From Candidatus Oxydemutator sp. (lineage in GTDB: Bacteria > Pseudomonadota > Gammaproteobacteria > Poriferisulfidales > Oxydemutatoraceae), in contig OZ241883.1 in assembly GCA_965203445.1 (NCBI GenBank), positions 928,001 through 992,000 of the forward strand: a stretch of DNA of 64,000 nt, in the 5' to 3' direction. The translations under genes and the position numbers were made by a program. Below, in pieces: positions 9,451 through 50,136 of this stretch. The notes below the pieces were generated by a model. It saw only the letters and a list, made by a program, of their open reading frames with translations. It was not told the DNA's origin and made no database searches. Each line of letters begins with the position of its first letter. The stretch's first letter is position 1.

Positions 9451-9531
9451 GAACCGGCGCGGAAGGGATGCGTCAGTGTATATAATTCCCATATAATTCT
9501 CACGCTATCTTTGCGAATCAGGAGGAAAGAC

Positions 9532-26273: not shown

Positions 26274-26349
26274 AAGGGGAGGTCGGCCACGCTGCGCCCT
26301 TGCTGAATCCGCCCCGAATCCGCCCATGGTATATAATTCCAGGGCGACG

Positions 26350-42248: not shown

Positions 42249-43503
42249 GGGAATTATATAGAATGTTGTGCAAGGCACCGCATCCCATCCATTTGACGTT
42301 TCACAGGCCGAGTAACCTCACCACCTCCACGTCCAGCAGCCCTATTCCCGAAGGCCAGTATATTCAATGCGGCATTCACATCCGCATTGTCCCGATGACC
42401 GCAGGCGCTACACTCGAAGACCGCCTGGGTCTTTCTGTTTTCTTTATCTACGTTCCCACATTTACTGCATGTCTGACTTGTGTATGCGGGGTTCACGTAG
42501 TTCGTATCCGTCTTGTAATCCAGACACTGATGAAACTTTCCCCAACAAGACGCCAGGATCACGCGGTTCAGTCCGGTCTTTGCACGGACATTCGTTCCAG
42601 GGTTATCCTTCGTTCCCTTGGCGCTTCTTGTTAGCCCCTGGTTGTTCAATTTCTCCAGGTGCACAAGAGAGTAGTTATCGGCCACTTGCCTCGATGTGCC
42701 ATGGCACCAGTTCCGTCTGATATGACGCAACTTGGCCTGCGCTTTCTGGTGTAACGATTGCGCACGCCTCCACCGGTTCGACGCCTTGATCCCCTTCTTG
42801 CGGTTCGGCCCCTGACGCCTTGCCATCATCCTCTGAGAACGCCTGACGCGCCGCTCATGCCCTGCCATATCCGGCATACGAAATACCTTTCCATCAGAAC
42901 AGGTTACCTGACTGACGTTACGGTCTATTCCTACAGAGTACCCTACTTTCGATACTTCGGCCTGTTCCACTTCGTATGTGATATACGCGTACCACTTGCC
43001 GCATTCCCGCTTGACCGTGCCGGATTTGGGCACGCCGTCCGGATACGGATTGTGGCCAAGCAGCAGCACCTCGCCTATCCTGGCGATGTAGAGATAACGT
43101 CCGTTCAAGCGGAACGCTCCGGTGCATAACGGAAAACTATCAGGGCGGACATACTTGGCGTGAAACCTCGGCAGGCCTCCCTCTTTCTTGAGGAATTGCC
43201 TGTACGCGGTCTCTATCGGCTTCAACGCTTGGCGCACTATCGGCATGGAATACTCCTGCAACCACGTATCGTCATCCCTGCGCAATGCCGTGAACCGCTT
43301 GCCAAGAGAATAAAACCGGTAATCGCACTCGCCATCCTCGGCATACTCGTCACGCAACTTGCCCACAAAATGGTTCCACACGTAACGGCACGCACCAGCC
43401 GTGCCCGCCAACTTGCGGGCCTTGACTTGAGTTCCTGCATGAACTCTATATCGAATTGTTCGATACATTTTCATTTTCCCGCACAACATTCTATATAATT
43501 CCC
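42249..43503 (-). mobile_element. TIR-bounded TnpB-only element A (1255 bp)
   Basis: Perfect 23-bp TIR GGGAATTATATAGAATGTTGTGC at 42249-42271 and 43481-43503; no TSD visible. Confidence 0.85.
42254..43474 (-). CDS. tnpB: RNA-guided endonuclease TnpB
   Basis: CRYVWN HTH, RuvC motifs GIDRN / HLEKL / NADVNAALNI, Zn ribbon CSKC..CSAC. Confidence 0.93.
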   Translation of the reverse strand: MKMYRTIRYRVHAGTQVKARKLAGTAGACRYVWNHFVGKLRDEYAEDGECDYRFYSLGKRFTALRRDDDTWLQEYSMPIVRQALKPIETAYRQFLKKEGGLPRFHAKYVRPDSFPLCTGAFRLNGRYLYIARIGEVLLLGHNPYPDGVPKSGTVKRECGKWYAYITYEVEQAEVSKVGYSVGIDRNVSQVTCSDGKVFRMPDMAGHERRVRRSQRMMARRQGPNRKKGIKASNRWRRAQSLHQKAQAKLRHIRRNWCHGTSRQVADNYSLVHLEKLNNQGLTRSAKGTKDNPGTNVRAKTGLNRVILASCWGKFHQCLDYKTDTNYVNPAYTSQTCSKCGNVDKENRKTQAVFECSACGHRDNADVNAALNILAFGNRAAGRGGGEVTRPVKRQMDGMRCLAQHSI

Positions 43504-44381: not shown

Positions 44382-45563
44382 ATGATACCGCGTCTGCTCG
44401 AAAATCAAATCCTTGACGCTCTTCGCGCGATGCCCGTGGTCGCCATCCTGGGGCCGCGCCAAGTCGGCAAAACTACGCTTGCGCTTGCGATCACCCACGA
44501 CAAAGTCGGCAAAGAAGTCCTCTATCTGGATTTGGAGCGAGATTCCGATCTGGCCAAGCTGAATGATGCCGAGGCCTATCTCAAACGGTTCGGCAACCGT
44601 CTGCTGATCATTGACGAGGTGCAGAGAAAGCCGGATTTGTTCAGGGTGTTGCGCAGCCTCATTGACGCCAGAAGGCGCGCCGGCGAGAAAGGGGGGCTTT
44701 TGTTGTTGGGTTCGGCTGCCCGCGGACTGCTCCAGCATTCCTCTGAGACACTGGCGGGTCGCATTCGTTATTTGGAGTTGAGCACTCTCTCTGCGCTGGA
44801 AATGTATCGGGCGAAGGTTCCGGGTTTTACGATGGAAAATCTGTGGCTCAGAGGCGGTTTCCCCGATGGTTGTCTGGTGGCAAACGACGATGAGAGTTGG
44901 AACTGGCGTTCTGACTTTATTGCCTCTTACGTGGAACGTGACATGGCGTTGCTGGGGCCGAAGGTCCCGGCCACGCGAATGAGGCGCTTTTGGAGCATGT
45001 TGGCTCATTGGCACGGGCAGCAGATCAATCTGTCGTCGTTGGGCAAAAGCCTTGAAGTGGATCACAAAACCATCCGATCCTACCTGGACACACTGACCGA
45101 TTTTTACATGGTCAGACAGTTGCCCCCATGGTCGGGTAACACGAGAAAACGGCTGGTCAAATCGGCCAAGGTCTATATCCGGGACAGCGGCATATTGCAC
45201 CGCCTTTTGAATATCCCGGACTATGAAACCCTGTTGGGGCATCCGGCATTGGGCGCGAGTTGGGAAGGCTTTGTGTTGGAAAACATCCTCGTCGGTTTGT
45301 CCGATAAATGGCAATCCAGCTACTACAGAACGGCGGATCGGCATGAGCTTGATCTGGTTCTGGAAGGGCCGAAACGGGAGACCTGGGCTATAGAGGTAAA
45401 ACGTTCGACGGCGCCCAAAGTAAGCAGCCTCTATCATTCTGCGTGCGCTGAGATCGGGGCAACGAGAAAGGTGGTGGTTTATCCAGGCGCGGACAGATTC
45501 CCGCTGGCTGATAACGCCGAGGCCGTCGGCCTCAACGCATTTTTGTCTGATCTGGCGCGGTAA
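44382..45563 (+). CDS. AAA_14/DUF4143 ATPase
   Basis: GPRQVGKTT, IDEVQ, SETLAGR, RGGFP, ELD...AIEVK. Confidence 0.9.
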   Translation: MIPRLLENQILDALRAMPVVAILGPRQVGKTTLALAITHDKVGKEVLYLDLERDSDLAKLNDAEAYLKRFGNRLLIIDEVQRKPDLFRVLRSLIDARRRAGEKGGLLLLGSAARGLLQHSSETLAGRIRYLELSTLSALEMYRAKVPGFTMENLWLRGGFPDGCLVANDDESWNWRSDFIASYVERDMALLGPKVPATRMRRFWSMLAHWHGQQINLSSLGKSLEVDHKTIRSYLDTLTDFYMVRQLPPWSGNTRKRLVKSAKVYIRDSGILHRLLNIPDYETLLGHPALGASWEGFVLENILVGLSDKWQSSYYRTADRHELDLVLEGPKRETWAIEVKRSTAPKVSSLYHSACAEIGATRKVVVYPGADRFPLADNAEAVGLNAFLSDLAR

Positions 45564-45569
45564 CGACCG

Positions 45570-47087
45570 TCAGGCCAGAAACAAATCGTAGCCCGGGTTG
45601 CCCGACTCGTCCTGATAGGCGTAGGGCGATTCGGCCAGCAGCGTCCTGAACCCCGCCAGTTCGCCGTCCGGCACCTGTATTCCCGCCAGCACGCGCCCGT
45701 AGGCGGCGCCGTGGTTGCGGTAGTGGAACAGGCTGATGTTCCAGCGTCGCCCGCCGATGTACTCCAGGAACTCGAGCAGCGCGCCCGGTCTTTCGGGAAA
45801 CTGAAAGCGGCACAGGCGTTCGTCGTTCAGACGCCCGGCGCGGCCGCCGATCATGTGACGCAGGTGCAGTTTCGCCATCTCGTTGTCCGACAGGTCGGCG
45901 ACCGGGTAGCCGTTGTCGTGCAACGCCGTCAGCACCGCGTCTTTGTCTTGCGCGTCGTCGAATTGCAGGCCGACGAAAATACGCGCCCGCGCCTCGTCGG
46001 CGTAGCGGTAGTTGAACTCGGTGATCGTGCGCCTGCCGATGGTGCGGCAGAAATCGAGGAAGCTGCCGGGACGTTCCGGTATCGTCACCGCGAGCAGCGA
46101 TTCGGCGCCCTCGCCGATCTCGTAGCGTTCGACGACGTGCTTCAGGCGGTCGAAGTTGATATTGGCGCCGGAGGCGATTGCGACCAGCCCGCACCCGCGC
46201 AGCCGCTCGGCACGCGCGTATTTCTTCAGGCCCGCGATGGACAGTGCGCCGGCGGGCTCGAGCAGCGCGCGCGTGTCGTCGAAGTGGTCCTTGACCGCGG
46301 CGCAGATCTCGTCGGTCGTAACCAGCACGACGTCGTCCACCGTACGCCGCGCGACGCGGAAAGTCTCGTCGCCGATGCGCCGCACCGCGGCGCCGTCGGC
46401 GAACAATCCGACTTTGTCGAGCGTCACCGGTTCGCCACGGCGCAGCGCCTCGGCCAGCGTCGGCGCGTCCTCGGGTTCGACGCCGATGACGCGCACCTCA
46501 GGGCGCGCGTGTTTCAGGTAGGACGCGACCCCGGCGATCAGGCCGCCGCCGCCGACCGGCACGAACACCGCGTGCAGGTCGTCGCCGCATTGCCGGTGAA
46601 TCTCCTTGCCGACCGAACCCTGCCCCGCGATCACGTCGGCGTCGTCGTACGGATGGACGAAGGTCAGCGCGCGTTCGGCGGCGAGTTGCAATGCGTGCTC
46701 GCAGGCCTGATCGTAGGTGTCGCCGTGTTGGACGATGTCCGCGCCCAACAAGCGCACGGCCTCGACCTTGATACGCGGCGTCGTGCGCGGCATCACGATC
46801 AGCGCGCGTATGCCGAGCTGGCGCGCCGCCAGCGCCACGCCCTGCGCGTGGTTGCCGGCGGAGGCGGCGATGACGCCGGCGTGCTGCTCGCGTTGCGACA
46901 GGTGCGCGATCTTGTTATAGGCGCCGCGCAGCTTGAACGAGAACACCGGCTGCAAGTCCTCGCGCTTCAGGCGCACGTCGCAGCCGAGGCGCGCGCTCAG
47001 CTTGGGCGCCGCCTCCAGCGGCGTTACCCGCGCGACGTCATAGACCTTGCAGGCGTCTATCGCCCGGATGTAGTCGTAGGGGGGCAT
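45570..47087 (-). CDS. ilvA: Biosynthetic threonine ammonia-lyase
   Basis: KREDLQPVFSFKLRGAYNK, SAGNHAQG, two ACT-like domains (PERPG). Confidence 0.96.
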   Translation of the reverse strand: MPPYDYIRAIDACKVYDVARVTPLEAAPKLSARLGCDVRLKREDLQPVFSFKLRGAYNKIAHLSQREQHAGVIAASAGNHAQGVALAARQLGIRALIVMPRTTPRIKVEAVRLLGADIVQHGDTYDQACEHALQLAAERALTFVHPYDDADVIAGQGSVGKEIHRQCGDDLHAVFVPVGGGGLIAGVASYLKHARPEVRVIGVEPEDAPTLAEALRRGEPVTLDKVGLFADGAAVRRIGDETFRVARRTVDDVVLVTTDEICAAVKDHFDDTRALLEPAGALSIAGLKKYARAERLRGCGLVAIASGANINFDRLKHVVERYEIGEGAESLLAVTIPERPGSFLDFCRTIGRRTITEFNYRYADEARARIFVGLQFDDAQDKDAVLTALHDNGYPVADLSDNEMAKLHLRHMIGGRAGRLNDERLCRFQFPERPGALLEFLEYIGGRRWNISLFHYRNHGAAYGRVLAGIQVPDGELAGFRTLLAESPYAYQDESGNPGYDLFLA

Positions 47088-47160
47088 CGGTTTTTCAGCG
47101 AGAGTCTGAGAAAACATAAGGGAATTATATATCTAAATCTACAGAATAGTGGTGAAGTAC

Positions 47161-47188
47161 TTGATTTTCTATAGGAATATGGTATGAT
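47161..47188 (+). promoter_or_regulatory. Sigma70-like promoter for tnpB in element B
   Basis: TTGATT-16 nt-TATGAT with extended -10 TG, 8 nt before the ATG. Confidence 0.55.
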
Positions 47189-47196
47189 GTTTTGTG

Positions 47197-48426
47197 ATGA
47201 AAGTCCATAGAACAATCCGGTATAGGTTGCATCCCGGTACGCAGGCCAAAGCCCGCAAGTTGGCGGGATTGGCGGGGGCGTGCAGGTTCGTATGGAATCA
47301 TTTCGTAGGGAAGTTAAGGGACGAGTATCTGGCATATGGATGCTGTAAGCCTTGGTATTTTACATTGGGCAAGCAGTTCACTCTGTTACGTCGCCACTGT
47401 GAACCCTGGTTGCAGGAATACTCGGCCAACATAGTAAAGGCATCTTTGAAACAGTTGGAAACGACGTACAAGCAGTTTTATAAGAAAGAGGGCGGATTGC
47501 CGAGGTTCCATGCAAAATATATGCATCCCGATAGTTTTCCCTTGGTGACGGGGACGTTCCATCTGAAAGGCCGTTACTTGCACATCGCCAAGATAGGCGA
47601 GGTGCTGTTGCTTGGCCACTATCCCTATCCGGGCGGCGTGCCGAAGTCCGGCACGGTCAAGCGGGAATGCGGCAGGTGGTATGCGTATATCACGTATGAA
47701 GTGGAACAATCCGAAGCATTGAAACCTGTAAGAGAAGTCGGCATAGACCGCAACGTCGGTCAGGTAACATTATCCGACGGGACGATGTATCGTATGCCGG
47801 ATACGGCAAAACATGAACGTCGCGTCAGGCGTTATCAGAAGAAGATGGCTAGGCGACAGGGGCCGAACCGCAAGAAAGGGATCAAGGCGTCGAACCGGTG
47901 GAAGCGCGCACAGTTGCTTTATCAGAAGGCACAGGCCACGTTGCGACACGTCAGACAGAATTGGTGCCATGGCGTATCGAGGGAAGTGGCCGATAAATAC
48001 TCCCTTGTGCACCTGGAGCAGTTGAACAATCAAGGGATGACAAGAAGCGCCAAGGGAACAAAGGAGGAACCCGGAACCAACGTTCGCGCGAAGAGCGGCT
48101 TGAACCGCGTGATCCTGGCGTCATGCTGGGGCAAGTTTCACCAGTGCCTGGACTACAAGACGAATACGAATTACATAAACCCCGCATACACAAGTCAGAC
48201 ATGCAATAAATGCGGGCACATTGACAAGAACAACAGAAAGACTCAGGCGGTATTTATCTGTACCGCTTGCGGTCATCGGGATAACGCGGATGTTAATGCC
48301 GCGTTGAATATACTGGCCTTCGGGAATGGGGCTACTGGACGTGGAGGTGATGACGTTAGTCGGCCTGTGAAGCGTCAAATGGATACCAGAAATCAACAAG
48401 AAAGTCTTGTAGATTTAGGTATATAA
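47197..48426 (+). CDS. tnpB: RNA-guided endonuclease TnpB
   Basis: GIDRN / HLEQL / NADVNAALNI, CNKC..CTAC; close paralog of 42254-43474. Confidence 0.93.
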   Translation: MKVHRTIRYRLHPGTQAKARKLAGLAGACRFVWNHFVGKLRDEYLAYGCCKPWYFTLGKQFTLLRRHCEPWLQEYSANIVKASLKQLETTYKQFYKKEGGLPRFHAKYMHPDSFPLVTGTFHLKGRYLHIAKIGEVLLLGHYPYPGGVPKSGTVKRECGRWYAYITYEVEQSEALKPVREVGIDRNVGQVTLSDGTMYRMPDTAKHERRVRRYQKKMARRQGPNRKKGIKASNRWKRAQLLYQKAQATLRHVRQNWCHGVSREVADKYSLVHLEQLNNQGMTRSAKGTKEEPGTNVRAKSGLNRVILASCWGKFHQCLDYKTNTNYINPAYTSQTCNKCGHIDKNNRKTQAVFICTACGHRDNADVNAALNILAFGNGATGRGGDDVSRPVKRQMDTRNQQESLVDLGI

Positions 48427-48675
48427 TTCCCAAACATAATACTGTAAAGGCCTTATATTTAAGTGCCGGGCTTTCCTCGGTTACTCTGGTATCCCCCGTC
48501 ATCCTCCGCGAAAGTGGGAACTTTAGTCTGGCCATTCTCGCCCCCGAACCTTCGCGGGCTATTTCCGATTGTTTTTAAGCCATTGATATAGAATTATTAT
48601 TTACGAATTTATTCAATAAGCAAAGTGAACTTCTCTTATATTGACTTTTCTTGGACTATCCACAGAATTGCTCCC

Positions 48676-50136
48676 GTGGAACTGATTCCCGCAGAGCAGT
48701 ACCGGGAGCGCATTTGCGCCGAAAATCCATGGTGGGATGAGGCGTCTCCTGGTACCGACAAAGCATTTCGGGATATGCGCCCGCGTGCCTATCTCGATTC
48801 CTTTGCCAAATTGGTGGAGGCAAGGGACGTGCGTCGCGCCGTCGTGCTGATGGGGCCGCGTCGCGTCGGCAAGACTGTTTTGCTGCAACACGTGATTCAG
48901 CGCTTGTTGGACGACGGTGTCCCGTCGCAAGCTATTGCCTACTTATCGTTGGACCAGCCCTTGTATGCCAACCGCTCCATTGAGGAACTCGTCGGCCATG
49001 CTCAAGGAGGTGGCACGCCGCCGAGCTCGCAACCGACTTTCCCGTCGTTGCGTGAAATCCAGTATCTGTTCCTGGATGAAATACAGTACCTGCGCGAATG
49101 GGAGCGTCATCTCAAGATATTCGTCGACGACCACCCGCGCATCAAATGCGTCGTTTCCGGGTCGGCGGCCGCGGCTCTGCGTTTGAAGAGCATCGAGTCC
49201 GGCACCGGACGCTTTACCGATTTTCTTCTGCCGCCACTGACGTTCTACGAGTTTATGGATTTACAGGGTATGGGCGACGTCGTCGTGCGCGAACGGCAGG
49301 GATGGTTTTGCGCGGACATTGACGCCCTCAACGAGCACTTCGTTCGCTACGTCAACATGGGCGGCTACCCTGAGGTGATTTTCTCCGAGAGTATTCGGAA
49401 AGACGTGAGACGCTACGTTCGCAGCGACATCATAGACAAGGTATTGCTGCGCGACTTGCCGAGCCTCTATGGCATCCGCGACATCCAGGATCTCAATTCG
49501 CTGTTTATGACCCTTGCCTGGCACACGGCGCAGGAAGTATCGTTGCAGGGGTTGTCGCAACATTCCGGTGTTTCCAGCCCGACGATCAAGAATTATCTGG
49601 AGTACCTGGAGGCCGCTTTCCTGATCAGGATAGTCCATCGTATTGATCGCAACGCCAAGCATTTCAAACGCGCCAATTACTTCAAGGTGCATTTGACCAC
49701 CCCGTCCATGCGCAGTGCTCTTTTCGGCCCGATAGAATCGAACGGCCGGGACATGGGCGCGCTGGTGGAAACGGCGATATTCTCGCAGTGGTTTCATGCG
49801 GACCTGGAGTTGCGTTACGCGCGTTGGCAGAGCGGCGAAGTTGACATCGTCTGTTTGGACGAGCGCTACAAGCCTCGCTGGTGCGTGGAAGTCAAATGGT
49901 CTGACTCCGTTGTTTCCCGGCCCCGCAAGACGACTCCTATCCGGTCTTTTCTCAAGACCCATCCCGGCGTCGAGGCCGCGTTCACGACGCGCTCGATGGA
50001 GGGAAAGTTGTCGCTTGCGCCGAACGTGACGGTGGATTGTCTGCCCGCGAGCGTTTATTGTTACTTGGCGGGTTTCCACGCCGTCGGCGACCGCTCGCGC
50101 GACCTGGTGTTGGGGGTGCGCGAAGGAACCCGCTGA
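48676..50136 (+). CDS. AAA_14/DUF4143-like ATPase (ENPWW subtype)
   Basis: GPRRVGKT, FLDEIQY, ESGTGRF, GGYPE, EVD...VEVKWSD. Confidence 0.85.
   Translation: MELIPAEQYRERICAENPWWDEASPGTDKAFRDMRPRAYLDSFAKLVEARDVRRAVVLMGPRRVGKTVLLQHVIQRLLDDGVPSQAIAYLSLDQPLYANRSIEELVGHAQGGGTPPSSQPTFPSLREIQYLFLDEIQYLREWERHLKIFVDDHPRIKCVVSGSAAAALRLKSIESGTGRFTDFLLPPLTFYEFMDLQGMGDVVVRERQGWFCADIDALNEHFVRYVNMGGYPEVIFSESIRKDVRRYVRSDIIDKVLLRDLPSLYGIRDIQDLNSLFMTLAWHTAQEVSLQGLSQHSGVSSPTIKNYLEYLEAAFLIRIVHRIDRNAKHFKRANYFKVHLTTPSMRSALFGPIESNGRDMGALVETAIFSQWFHADLELRYARWQSGEVDIVCLDERYKPRWCVEVKWSDSVVSRPRKTTPIRSFLKTHPGVEAAFTTRSMEGKLSLAPNVTVDCLPASVYCYLAGFHAVGDRSRDLVLGVREGTR

Follow-up and report, generated by a model that had tools for sequence, protein, structure and literature searches.

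The window analysed here, a stretch of 64,000 nucleotides from contig OZ241883.1 of a Candidatus Oxydemutator genome (GCA_965203445.1), carries next to ilvA a compact unit of 1312 bp (47120-48431, repeat to repeat) whose sole long open reading frame is tnpB (47194/47197-48426, + strand, 409-410 aa). The gene, recognized by Pfam and NCBIfam matches, encodes 409 residues when read from the ATG at 47197, a start at the GTG at 47194 being also possible. The unit is bounded by terminal inverted repeats of 24 nt with 23 of 24 positions complementary (96%): the left arm, GGGAATTATATATCTAAATCTACA, occupies 47120-47143 (+ strand) and the right arm, which reads GGGAATTATATACCTAAATCTACA inward and was identified by its pairing with the left one, 48408-48431 (- strand). 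An exact 8-nt direct repeat, AAACATAA, flanks the unit at 47112-47119 and 48432-48439, and the TAA stop codon of tnpB (48424-48426) falls within the right inverted repeat, 5 nt short of the element end. Repeat search and open reading frame list agree here with the initial annotation, which had described a tnpB-only unit of this size with 24-nt repeats, an exact 8-bp duplication and a stop codon inside the right repeat. The motif GGGAATTATATA, allowing at most one mismatch, occurs six times in the window against 0.03 expected, a count reached by none of 100 shuffled sequences.

The ISNwi1 group of the IS1595 family is characterized by the end motif GGnnATTAT, 8-bp duplications and passenger-carrying variants (ISfinder/TnPedia), and the ends of the unit are, as we take them, ISNwi1-like. 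Since no IS1595 transposase is encoded in 47120-48431, which holds tnpB only, the unit can be classified only as a non-autonomous IS1595 derivative, and its IS1595-type ends and 8-bp duplication make a transposase encoded at another place in the same genome the most likely agent of its movement.

Just 5' of tnpB there is a promoter-like site (TTGATT, 16-nt spacer, TG-TATGAT; 47161-47188, + strand), which is a consensus match only, the two such sites found near tnpB being at chance level (2.1 expected). The ilvA open reading frame as listed starts within the left duplication (ATG 47117-47115); its similarity to relatives stops near 47077, so that the true start is probably the second methionine (MPPYDY, ~47087).

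TnpB and the structured region at its 3' end

The protein matches the Pfam families HTH_OrfB_IS605, OrfB_IS605 and Cas12f1-like_TNB, scores 214.6 bits against the NCBIfam model guided_TnpB (NF040570, cut-off 100), and falls below the cut-offs of both exception models, IS200_TnpB and IS607_TnpB. In an alignment of nine genomic copies the RuvC acidic residues D184, E274 and D362 (numbered from the ATG at 47197) and the zinc-finger residues C336, C339 and C358 are invariant, and in solved TnpB and Cas12 chains the catalytic motifs fall at the same aligned positions. The intact RuvC triad and zinc ribbon reported initially are thus seen in the alignment as well, with the fourth cysteine ("FICTACGH") replaced in one copy (L008). 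The median dN/dS among genomic tnpB copies is 0.13 (49 usable of 78 pairs), the subfamilies being old, with dS values of ~1 or higher from one to another, and TnpB is under purifying selection with its catalytic residues intact.

An omegaRNA-like conserved structured region (48285-48431, + strand) overlaps the 3' end of tnpB and comprises three helices (~48285-48365, approximate coordinates mapped from alignment columns), an invariant block, GAAGCGTCAA, and a terminal hairpin for which the inner part of the right repeat supplies the 3' arm. Synonymous-codon identity climbs from ~0.40-0.45 to 0.72-0.84 in the final ~40 codons of tnpB, and compensatory changes are present in the 3' helices. In a covariation test of a structure derived from the very alignment used for the test, 93.8% of cells were paired, against 83.9% in shuffles and 35-54% in slid controls, and 63 double-change cells were counted against 17.5 expected, with none of 500 shuffles as high. 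This predicted structured RNA over the tnpB 3' end is new here; an Rfam search of 46900-48700 with E values up to 5 gave no match.

Of 45 elements, 34 possess the terminal hairpin. We considered but did not accept it as proof that an omegaRNA is made, since an end-repeat hairpin is seen as well in some autonomous elements, at the end next to the transposase, and on the left side of 17 of 45 tnpB elements and is therefore not omegaRNA-specific. By analogy with the IS200/IS605 TnpBs, and because no terminator-like site was found at the right end, we infer that a putative omegaRNA would be read through that end with the duplication and its flank as guide. The putative guide template (48432-48451, + strand) would consist of the duplication and ~12 nt of flank, a length assumed from known TnpBs.

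Copies in the same genome and the partner transposase

A genome-wide search for end pairs of this kind, as suggested in the initial annotation, was productive: the 2.38-Mb genome (G000) contains 13 full-length tnpB copies, all bounded by 24-26-nt end repeats of the GGGAA[T/C]TA type, with duplications that are perfect 8-bp repeats in eight copies, match at 7/8 positions in two, at 6/8 in two and at 4/8 in one. Besides these 13 copies, the GGGAATTAT...ATAATTCCC pairs of the genome enclose deletion derivatives and one element of 2616 bp. A 163-bp repeat-only derivative lies at 113341-113503.

This 2616-bp element (1978350-1980965 of G000) has end repeats pairing at 26/26 positions and a duplication of its own, ATCAGAAA. 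It encodes a 307-aa protein with Zn_ribbon_IS1595 and DDE_Tnp_IS1595 domains (NF033547 at 206 bits; open reading frame intact), which gives the only PF12762 match above cut-off in the genome (149-151 bits) and is the genome's only intact IS1595-family DDE transposase. Its ends are identical to those of the tnpB unit at 22 of 24 positions on the left and 23 of 24 on the right, so that the search for an IS1595 transposase with the same ends yielded one intact candidate. The earlier proposal that tnpB is the sole cargo of a non-autonomous IS1595-like element mobilized in trans is supported by these shared ends, by the duplications and by the separate transposase.

Seven end variants occur in this genome, six of them without a cognate transposase here. 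Given this, and the 1-2 differences per 24 positions between the ends of the transposase element and those of the tnpB unit, most tnpB copies of this genome may now be immobile. The two closest copies, located at different sites, are 97% rather than 100% identical, and a very recent jump is accordingly undocumented.

Unoccupied sites and related elements

The empty site expected in relatives was found in genomes of the same genus. The ilvA-rpiA spacer of G001 and G003 contains a single 8-mer, AAGCATGA, homologous to the duplication at 6/8 positions and followed by TACTGTAAA as in window positions 48440-48448. At the site of the copy at 1720176 of G000, exactly one CTATTCTG is present in G001, G002 and G003, identical to the duplicated 8-mer, and at the site of the copy at 174463 there is one AATAGTGG (7/8) in G001. 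The unit inserts with an 8-bp target duplication. The evidence for the mode of movement consists of DDE-type ends and duplications, and cut-and-paste excision chemistry is assumed. Contigs of three public runs from two studies, which cover the locus in fragments, contained no joint from 47119 to 48432 across the element; one contig (side 26) joins 47147 to 48407, and thereby both repeats, and probably reflects an assembly path or a derivative made of repeats only. Neither observation is given weight in either direction.

The same architecture is found in homologues (36-62% identity) of sponge-associated gammaproteobacterial genomes. In named genome records, the best 80 homologous loci are 46-62% identical; a GGGA-type repeat pair combined with a duplication matching at 7/8 positions or better is present in at least 33 of them, the duplication being perfect in 25. 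Loci that the end-finding heuristic missed show GGGACTTAT-type repeats on inspection; in Arenicellales loci, copy-to-copy alignment places ends of this type ~580 nt upstream of tnpB. Homologues of 36-43% identity retain the repeat and duplication architecture, and a scan of metagenome contigs gave only TnpBs of 25-32% identity, which added no insertion sites.

A homologue of the transposase is present in 25 of 41 genomes of relatives, where the transposase-bearing elements measure 1246-1410 bp or 2.4-2.9 kb and have the same end type and perfect 8-bp duplications, and passenger-carrying variants of IS1595-type elements also occur. We collected 23 transposase-bearing elements with duplications of at least 7/8; their duplications are 8 bp long and AT-rich, and their ends begin GGGAATTAT. 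None of the 47 transposase loci had a tnpB match. Of 49 left ends of tnpB-only elements, 21 are identical at 21 or more of 24 positions to some collected transposase-element end, an example being the transposase element L107 of G001 (outside the transposase control set owing to window limits) and the tnpB copy at 430970 of G000. The end variants co-vary with the tnpB lineages.

Bases flanking the insertions

Spurious low-scoring end pairs (15 of 22 repeat positions identical) were left out by demanding 16 or more of 22 identical repeat positions and a duplication matching at 7/8 or better, and removal of orthologous or duplicated sites then reduced 69 sites to 49 tnpB-only insertions. In these, the base adjoining the duplication on the left (L-1) was a purine in 44 of 49 cases and C in none, and the mirrored position on the right was a pyrimidine in 23 of 49 (p = 8e-6 versus L-1). 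The corresponding counts for the transposase-bearing elements were 14/23 and 9/23, eight of these 23 control sites belonging to one insertion sequence in one genome. Over L-3 to L-1, C occurred at 7 of 147 positions in tnpB-only insertions versus 36 of 138 in transposase-bearing ones (p = 3e-7, with the sites from related genomes partly dependent). A C-free, purine-rich triplet just 5' of the duplication distinguishes tnpB-bearing from transposase-bearing insertions, which is new here. The signal is degenerate (roughly R-D-R) and far weaker than known TAMs of 4-5 nt, and one tnpB subfamily has T at L-1 in 4/4 sites. At the studied locus the inferred TAM position of the unoccupied site would be AGA (47109-47111, + strand), the three bases directly 5' of the duplication on the tnpB-sense strand; at the equivalent triplet position the element's own end reads CCC.

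Proposed mechanism and alternative explanations

Taken as a whole, the explanation that we consider very probable is that of a non-autonomous IS1595-family element with tnpB and its 3' RNA as cargo, mobilized in trans and retained with the aid of TnpB. In this scheme the DDE transposase would bind the shared ends and move the tnpB element in trans, and an omegaRNA with the duplication and right flank as guide would arise from transcripts that run through the structured 3' region and across the right repeat. TnpB would then cut the unoccupied allele, which consists of left flank, single 8-mer and right flank and has the C-free, purine-rich triplet at the TAM position, and would spare the occupied site, that position being taken there by the ...TTCCC end of the element itself; recombinational repair from the occupied copy would keep or spread the element. 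Such homing or retention would explain why the flank enrichment is found solely among tnpB-bearing insertions.

The alternative that survives best concerns present activity only and not the identity of the elements, namely that they are immobile relics of anciently inherited or acquired tnpB-bearing IS1595 derivatives. The age of the subfamilies, a cognate transposase for one end variant only, imperfect duplications in 5 of 13 copies and the lack of a polymorphic empty allele in the three runs with their fragmentary cover all speak for it, whereas the eight duplications that persist as perfect repeats, the 97% identical copies at different sites, the insertions missing in same-genus relatives and the intact transposase frame speak against it, and we regard it as unlikely, if not to be neglected.

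It is less plausible still that TnpB is a cargo unrelated to transposon retention, serving for instance in host or element defence or in regulation with a fixed or flank-derived guide, in which case the left-flank bias would reflect not a TAM but selection on neighbouring gene expression or, on tnpB elements, a target choice by the transposition complex that depends on orientation. The degeneracy of the signal and the deviating subfamily would fit this, as would the argument of a 2026 review, in its discussion of TnpB-DDE associations, that OMEGA-type homing offers a DDE element little advantage, a break being left by excision in any case (PMC13565253). Nevertheless, the bias is located precisely at the triplet next to the duplication on the tnpB-sense side and is seen neither at the mirrored position nor on either side of same-ended transposase-bearing elements, the catalytic residues are conserved with dN/dS of ~0.13, and a conserved structured RNA adjoins the right end in the manner of guide-producing omegaRNAs, so that we think this reading has little to commend it.

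No IS605-type ends nested inside the repeats were found in the 13 genomic copies and homologous loci, nor any match to Y1 TnpA (PF01797) in the complete genome, control genomes having given matches; the outcome named at the outset as contrary to trans-mobilization was thus not seen. The chance landing of an IS200/IS605 (IS1341-type) tnpB element with its own hairpin ends in an IS1595-derived miniature, with repeats and duplication as an outer shell, for which one may cite the 163-bp repeat-only derivative and the classical lack of TIRs and TSDs in tnpB-only elements (as described in PMC3627910), can be dismissed as extremely improbable, given that tnpB fills the space between the repeats in 13/13 copies and in dozens of homologues down to 36% identity, that the stop codon lies within the right repeat in 8 of 13 genomic copies (otherwise 14-19 nt off the right end) and the start mostly 22-75 nt from the left end, that end variants follow the tnpB lineages, that the whole unit is missing from unoccupied sites and that the genome has no Y1 TnpA.

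Beyond the trans-mobilized, TnpB-retained element, one may tentatively suppose, as a possibility that we would not call likely, that this TnpB clade has long been an obligate hitchhiker of IS1595 elements, with partner-matched ends, a guide derived from the duplication and its flank and a short, C-free and purine-rich TAM that the terminal CCC of the element masks where a site is occupied, and that it stands near the origin of type V-N. If true, RNA-guided homing or retention would have come to serve a DDE transposon that makes target duplications, and, with Cas12n and its A-rich PAM as nearest solved relative, such elements would lie near the origin of the type V-N effectors. The selfish role of TnpB is understood in the case of IS200/IS605 and IS607, both of which excise scarlessly, and the use that a duplication-making DDE element may have for an RNA-guided nuclease is the question that this lineage addresses. 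In the same genomes, tnpB-only and transposase-only elements with shared ends occur by the dozen and form a natural test set, and the difference in their insertion flanks leads to a concrete, assayable prediction on TAM, guide and self-avoidance. IS1595 is added to the DDE families found with TnpB, in an arrangement strictly in trans, and compact nucleases with a possibly purine-rich TAM are indicated.

Comparison with known systems

The kind of element described here is already known, since Altae-Tran et al. (2023, PNAS; PMC10691335) described six DDE-associated TnpB branches with inverted terminal repeats (DDE-1 to DDE-6) as well as solo TnpBs that share the ends of transposase-bearing elements and were inferred to be mobilized in trans. 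The premise that TnpB is known from IS200/IS605 and IS607 elements only was outdated by that publication. As in DDE-1 to DDE-6, TnpB lies within inverted repeats and the tnpB 3' end is near the transposon end; in those branches, however, TnpB is encoded together with a DDE transposase (PMC10691335), whereas here the two were never found in one element (0/47 transposase loci). The main text of PMC10691335 names IS630 as the only DDE family, and a text search did not find 'IS1595' in it; the present clade may nonetheless correspond to one of DDE-1 to DDE-5. A 2026 review that discusses the rarity of TnpB-DDE associations gives ISL2, IS630 and IS1031 as TnpB-associated DDE families (PMC13565253). 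Our literature search found no paper combining TnpB and ISNwi1, and papers on TnpB and IS1595 together were, by their titles and the opening of their abstracts, unrelated surveys.

The likeness to the IS1595/ISNwi1 group lies in the partner, a transposase with DDE_Tnp_IS1595 and zinc-ribbon domains, and in the AT-rich 8-bp duplications, and the unit differs from that group in lacking a transposase and in carrying as cargo an RNA-guided nuclease with a predicted RNA. With the IS1341 group of IS200/IS605 it shares a single tnpB gene of ~400 aa and, as predicted here, an RNA overlapping its 3' end. IS200/IS605 elements are described as lacking terminal inverted repeats and target duplications and as depending on Y1 TnpA (PMC3627910, PMC13565253), unlike the elements studied here, which have repeats and 8-bp duplications in a genome without Y1 TnpA. 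A further mark of that family is insertion on the 3' side of a short specific target motif. Distant soil homologues (26-30% identity), taken as outgroup from the scan of metagenome contigs, have Y1 TnpA upstream in the 4/4 loci examined.

The best-scoring solved relative of the protein is RdCas12n (9J09; E = 1e-24 with the single sequence and 8e-30 with a profile), ahead of the ISDra2 TnpB (E = 5e-19 and 1e-22), and Cas12n and this TnpB have in common an insertion, SAKGT..PG.NV..KSGLNR, in the RuvC half. The match to 9J09 spans only residues ~147-374, so that the PAM-reading WED/REC part is unaligned, and the resemblance of the A-rich 5'-AAN PAM described for Cas12n (type V-N; PMC12216341) to the purine-rich flank is a lead only. 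Cas12n works with a CRISPR array and a tracrRNA, according to the same source, and its likeness to the present protein is one of sequence similarity alone.

A parallel in eukaryotes is Fanzor1, a TnpB homologue carried as cargo of DDE elements in TIR transposons (Bao & Jurka 2013, PMC3627910), whose carriers are described as including non-autonomous copies that share ends with transposase-bearing relatives and, in an Ectocarpus virus, IS4-type elements with 8-bp duplications. The elements of this study differ from the Fanzor1 carriers in being prokaryotic, in encoding a compact protein of 409 aa and in the DDE family with which they are associated.

Anatomy and genomic copies of the tnpB element

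The element adjoining ilvA (window 47120-48431, 1312 bp) is bounded by 24-nt inverted repeats mismatched at one position (arms at 47120-47143 and 48408-48431) and flanked on both sides by an 8-bp target duplication, AAACATAA (47112-47119 and 48432-48439). Its single long ORF, tnpB, lies on the + strand (47194/47197-48426), the TAA stop forming part of the terminal ...TATAATTCCC, all of which confirms what the initial annotation had observed. The product matches HTH_OrfB_IS605, OrfB_IS605 and Cas12f1-like_TNB, scores 214.6 bits against NCBIfam guided_TnpB (cut-off 100), and has RuvC and zinc-finger residues that all line up with solved TnpB and Cas12 chains. The catalytic sites had been described as intact; this holds for the RuvC D-E-D residues, invariant among nine aligned genomic copies, and for three of the four zinc-finger cysteines, the fourth being replaced in one copy. 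The G+C content is about 50%, against 65-70% in the neighbourhood, and the 12-nt end motif occurs six times in the window (0.03 expected). Solitary motifs at 9479-9490 and 26330-26341 (one exact, one with one mismatch), for which a partner was not found, may be what is left of other elements. The window also contains another tnpB element of this family (42249-43503, 1255 bp, tnpB on the - strand, repeats GGGAATTATATAGAATGTTGTGC), which shows about 78% identity to the first; since its flanks, ATATAATG and AAATATCC, agree at only 4/8 positions, either the duplication was lost or the element recombined.

The complete genome (2.38 Mb, 63.6% G+C) contains, by tblastn, 13 full-length copies of tnpB plus a few fragments, and 24-26-nt inverted repeats starting GGGAA[T/C]TA bound 13 of 13 full-length copies. 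Eight copies have perfect 8-bp duplications, two 7/8, two 6/8 and one 4/8, and the stop codon lies 5 nt from the element's end in 8/13. The end repeats fall into seven variants with common outer 12 nt and variable positions 13-24. Median dN/dS over codons 1-340 is 0.13 (range 0.07-0.21; 49 of 78 copy pairs with usable dS). The search for end pairs recovered, besides these copies and the transposase element described below, two deletion derivatives with the same ends and no clear duplication, namely a 163-bp repeat-only form (113341-113503) and a tnpB element reduced to 786 bp by internal deletion (247602-248387).

Unoccupied sites in the genus

Looking for an unoccupied ilvA site with a single 8-mer in relatives had been proposed as a check, and such a site was found in two same-genus genomes, G001 and G003, which past ilvA read ...GGCAT tgttg... 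AAGCATGA TACTGTAAAATCCCGCGAATG (rpiA in G003). The single 8-mer is 6/8 identical to AAACATAA and is followed by the same bases as those 3' of the window's right duplication. For the copy at 1720176, whose duplication is CTATTCTG, exactly one CTATTCTG is present at the orthologous site in G001, G002 and G003, and for the copy at 174463 the G001 site has a single AATAGTGG, 7/8 identical. Therefore, the mobile unit extends from repeat to repeat and its insertion duplicates 8 bp.

Some 25-30 nt separate the element from the probable start of ilvA (MPPYDY; window 47087-47117), upstream of which it sits. A longer ilvA ORF has its ATG inside the left duplication, and ilvA transcription now has to start within, or cross, the element's left end. 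Between the element and rpiA (50137), a lower-G+C stretch (48450-50136) encodes an AAA_14/DUF4143 ATPase, with a paralogous gene on the other side of ilvA (44382-45563). This stretch is absent from G003, where the ilvA-rpiA gap is about 45 bp, and looks like a second, independent insertion into the same spacer.

A single intact IS1595 transposase with near-identical ends

Exactly one DDE_Tnp_IS1595 match over cut-off was detected in the genome, a 307-aa transposase with the IS1595 zinc ribbon (NF033547, 206 bits), inside a 2616-bp element (1978350-1980965) with perfect 26-nt repeats and the target duplication ATCAGAAA. These repeats share 22/24 positions with the left end and 23/24 with the right end of the tnpB element at 47120-48431, and no Y1 TnpA was found in the complete genome. 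The shared ends, the 8-bp duplications and the absence of Y1 TnpA support the reading put forward initially, that tnpB is the sole cargo of a non-autonomous IS1595-like element mobilised in trans. A second, divergent IS1595-type transposase fragment (43% identity, residues 9-151) is present at 512999-513433.

The second gene of the partner element encodes an N6_N4 DNA methyltransferase fused to an HNH nuclease. Such a methyltransferase occurs in all passenger-bearing IS1595 transposase elements (this one and loci L107, L112, L240 and L244), fused to HNH in this genome and G001 and to a T5orf172 domain in L112, and followed in L240 and L244 by further ORFs without assignment. Methyltransferase passengers with nuclease domains thus constitute a second kind of nuclease-linked cargo on the same end-repeat framework.

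Of 41 related genomes, 25 have a transposase homologue; the elements concerned measure 1246-1410 bp, or 2.4-2.9 kb with the methyltransferase passenger, and have the same end type and mostly perfect 8-bp duplications. A scan with one genome per species identified 322 relatives of TnpB, and the best 80 of the 322 loci all come from metagenome-assembled Gammaproteobacteria (Candidatus Porisulfidus, Arenicellales, Oxydemutatoraceae and similar in record titles). In at least 33 of these best 80, a GGGA-type repeat pair comes with a duplication of >=7/8 (perfect in 25); where the end-finding heuristic failed, the repeats are of GGGACTTAT type and the 5' region is longer. One subfamily (L040, L044, L047, L058 and L062, Arenicellales records) is characterised by GGGACTTATATACTTAACTACAC ends and by about 580 nt from the left end to tnpB, a stretch that contains an incomplete second copy of the 5' portion of tnpB. 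A further 58 loci, taken from 40 genomes related to that of the window and in many cases repeating named records, include 27 with a duplication of >=7/8, homologues at only 36-43% identity among them. Left ends of tnpB-only elements are at least 21/24 identical to some collected transposase-element end in 21 of 49 cases, the inner end parts of transposase elements agree with those of tnpB-only lineages, and the ends of the transposase-bearing L107 in G001 match the variant at 430970 in the window's own genome. No tnpB was found within the 47 transposase loci examined, and all transposase matches near tnpB loci lie outside the tnpB-element boundaries. Soil homologues at a greater distance (26-30% identity) belong to the ordinary IS605 type, with Y1 TnpA upstream in 4/4 loci examined.

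A putative structured RNA at the 3' end and a flank signature

Sequence conservation and pairing point to a structured RNA over the tnpB 3' end. Synonymous-codon identity is about 0.40-0.45 along tnpB and 0.72-0.84 in the last ~40 codons (43 sequences), reaching well past the 8 repeat-covered codons. Across 34 elements, RNAalifold predicted 19 pairs in the final 220 nt; with the structure derived from the same alignment, 93.8% of cells were paired, against 83.9% in shuffles and 35-54% in slid controls, and 63 cells had both sides changed, against 17.5 expected (0/500 shuffles as high). A terminal hairpin whose 3' arm is the inner right repeat occurs in 34 of 45 elements, though the repeat sequences differ; because comparable hairpins exist at some transposase-proximal ends, it counts as no more than a hint. 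Beyond the element's right end there is no terminator-like site.

If this RNA, like that of IS605 elements, continues past the right end, its guide would consist of the duplication plus right flank, and the TAM position would correspond to the bases on the left side of the duplication at an unoccupied site. Of the 49 tnpB-only insertions left after de-duplication, 44 have a purine and none has C directly left of the duplication, and 43 have a purine at position -3, whereas only 23 have a pyrimidine at the mirrored position on the right (p = 8e-6). Next to the duplication, 14 of 23 transposase-bearing elements have a purine on the transposase side and nine on the mirrored side, and C at the three flank positions amounts to 7/147 for tnpB elements versus 36/138 for transposase elements (p = 3e-7). 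In the occupied site the element's own CCC fills these positions, which fits self-avoidance via a short C-free TAM, although the motif is degenerate. All four scored insertions of the GGGACTTATATACTTAACTACAC-end subfamily have [A/G][A/G]T followed by a TTA-starting duplication. The TAM, the guide and a role of TnpB in retention are inferred.

Comparison with known systems

The closest solved relative is RdCas12n (9J09; E = 1e-24 with the single sequence, 8e-30 with a profile), ahead of ISDra2 TnpB. It is reported to read an unusual, A-rich 5'-AAN PAM (PMC12216341), a likeness that is only a lead because the match omits the PAM-reading domains.

That the usual TnpB carriers lack inverted repeats and target duplications, as stated initially, agrees with the classical view of tnpB-only elements (PMC3627910, PMC13565253), from which the present element differs in having both; it does not extend to the DDE-associated branches reported in 2023. 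According to the main text of Altae-Tran et al. 2023 (PMC10691335), six such branches have inverted terminal repeats, tnpB 3' ends lie <=250 bp from the transposon end, and solo TnpBs with the same ends are proposed to be mobilised in trans, so the principle of TnpB on DDE-type ends is already known. The DDE family named there is IS630, and a 2026 review lists, in its main text, ISL2, IS630 and IS1031 (PMC13565253); IS1595 is mentioned in neither main text. A literature search returned no link of TnpB with ISNwi1, nor with IS1595 as judged by titles and the start of abstracts. As far as could be checked, the IS1595 partner is new with respect to these main texts, as are the strict split of tnpB and transposase between different elements, the way their ends have diversified in matching fashion and the flank signature of tnpB insertions.
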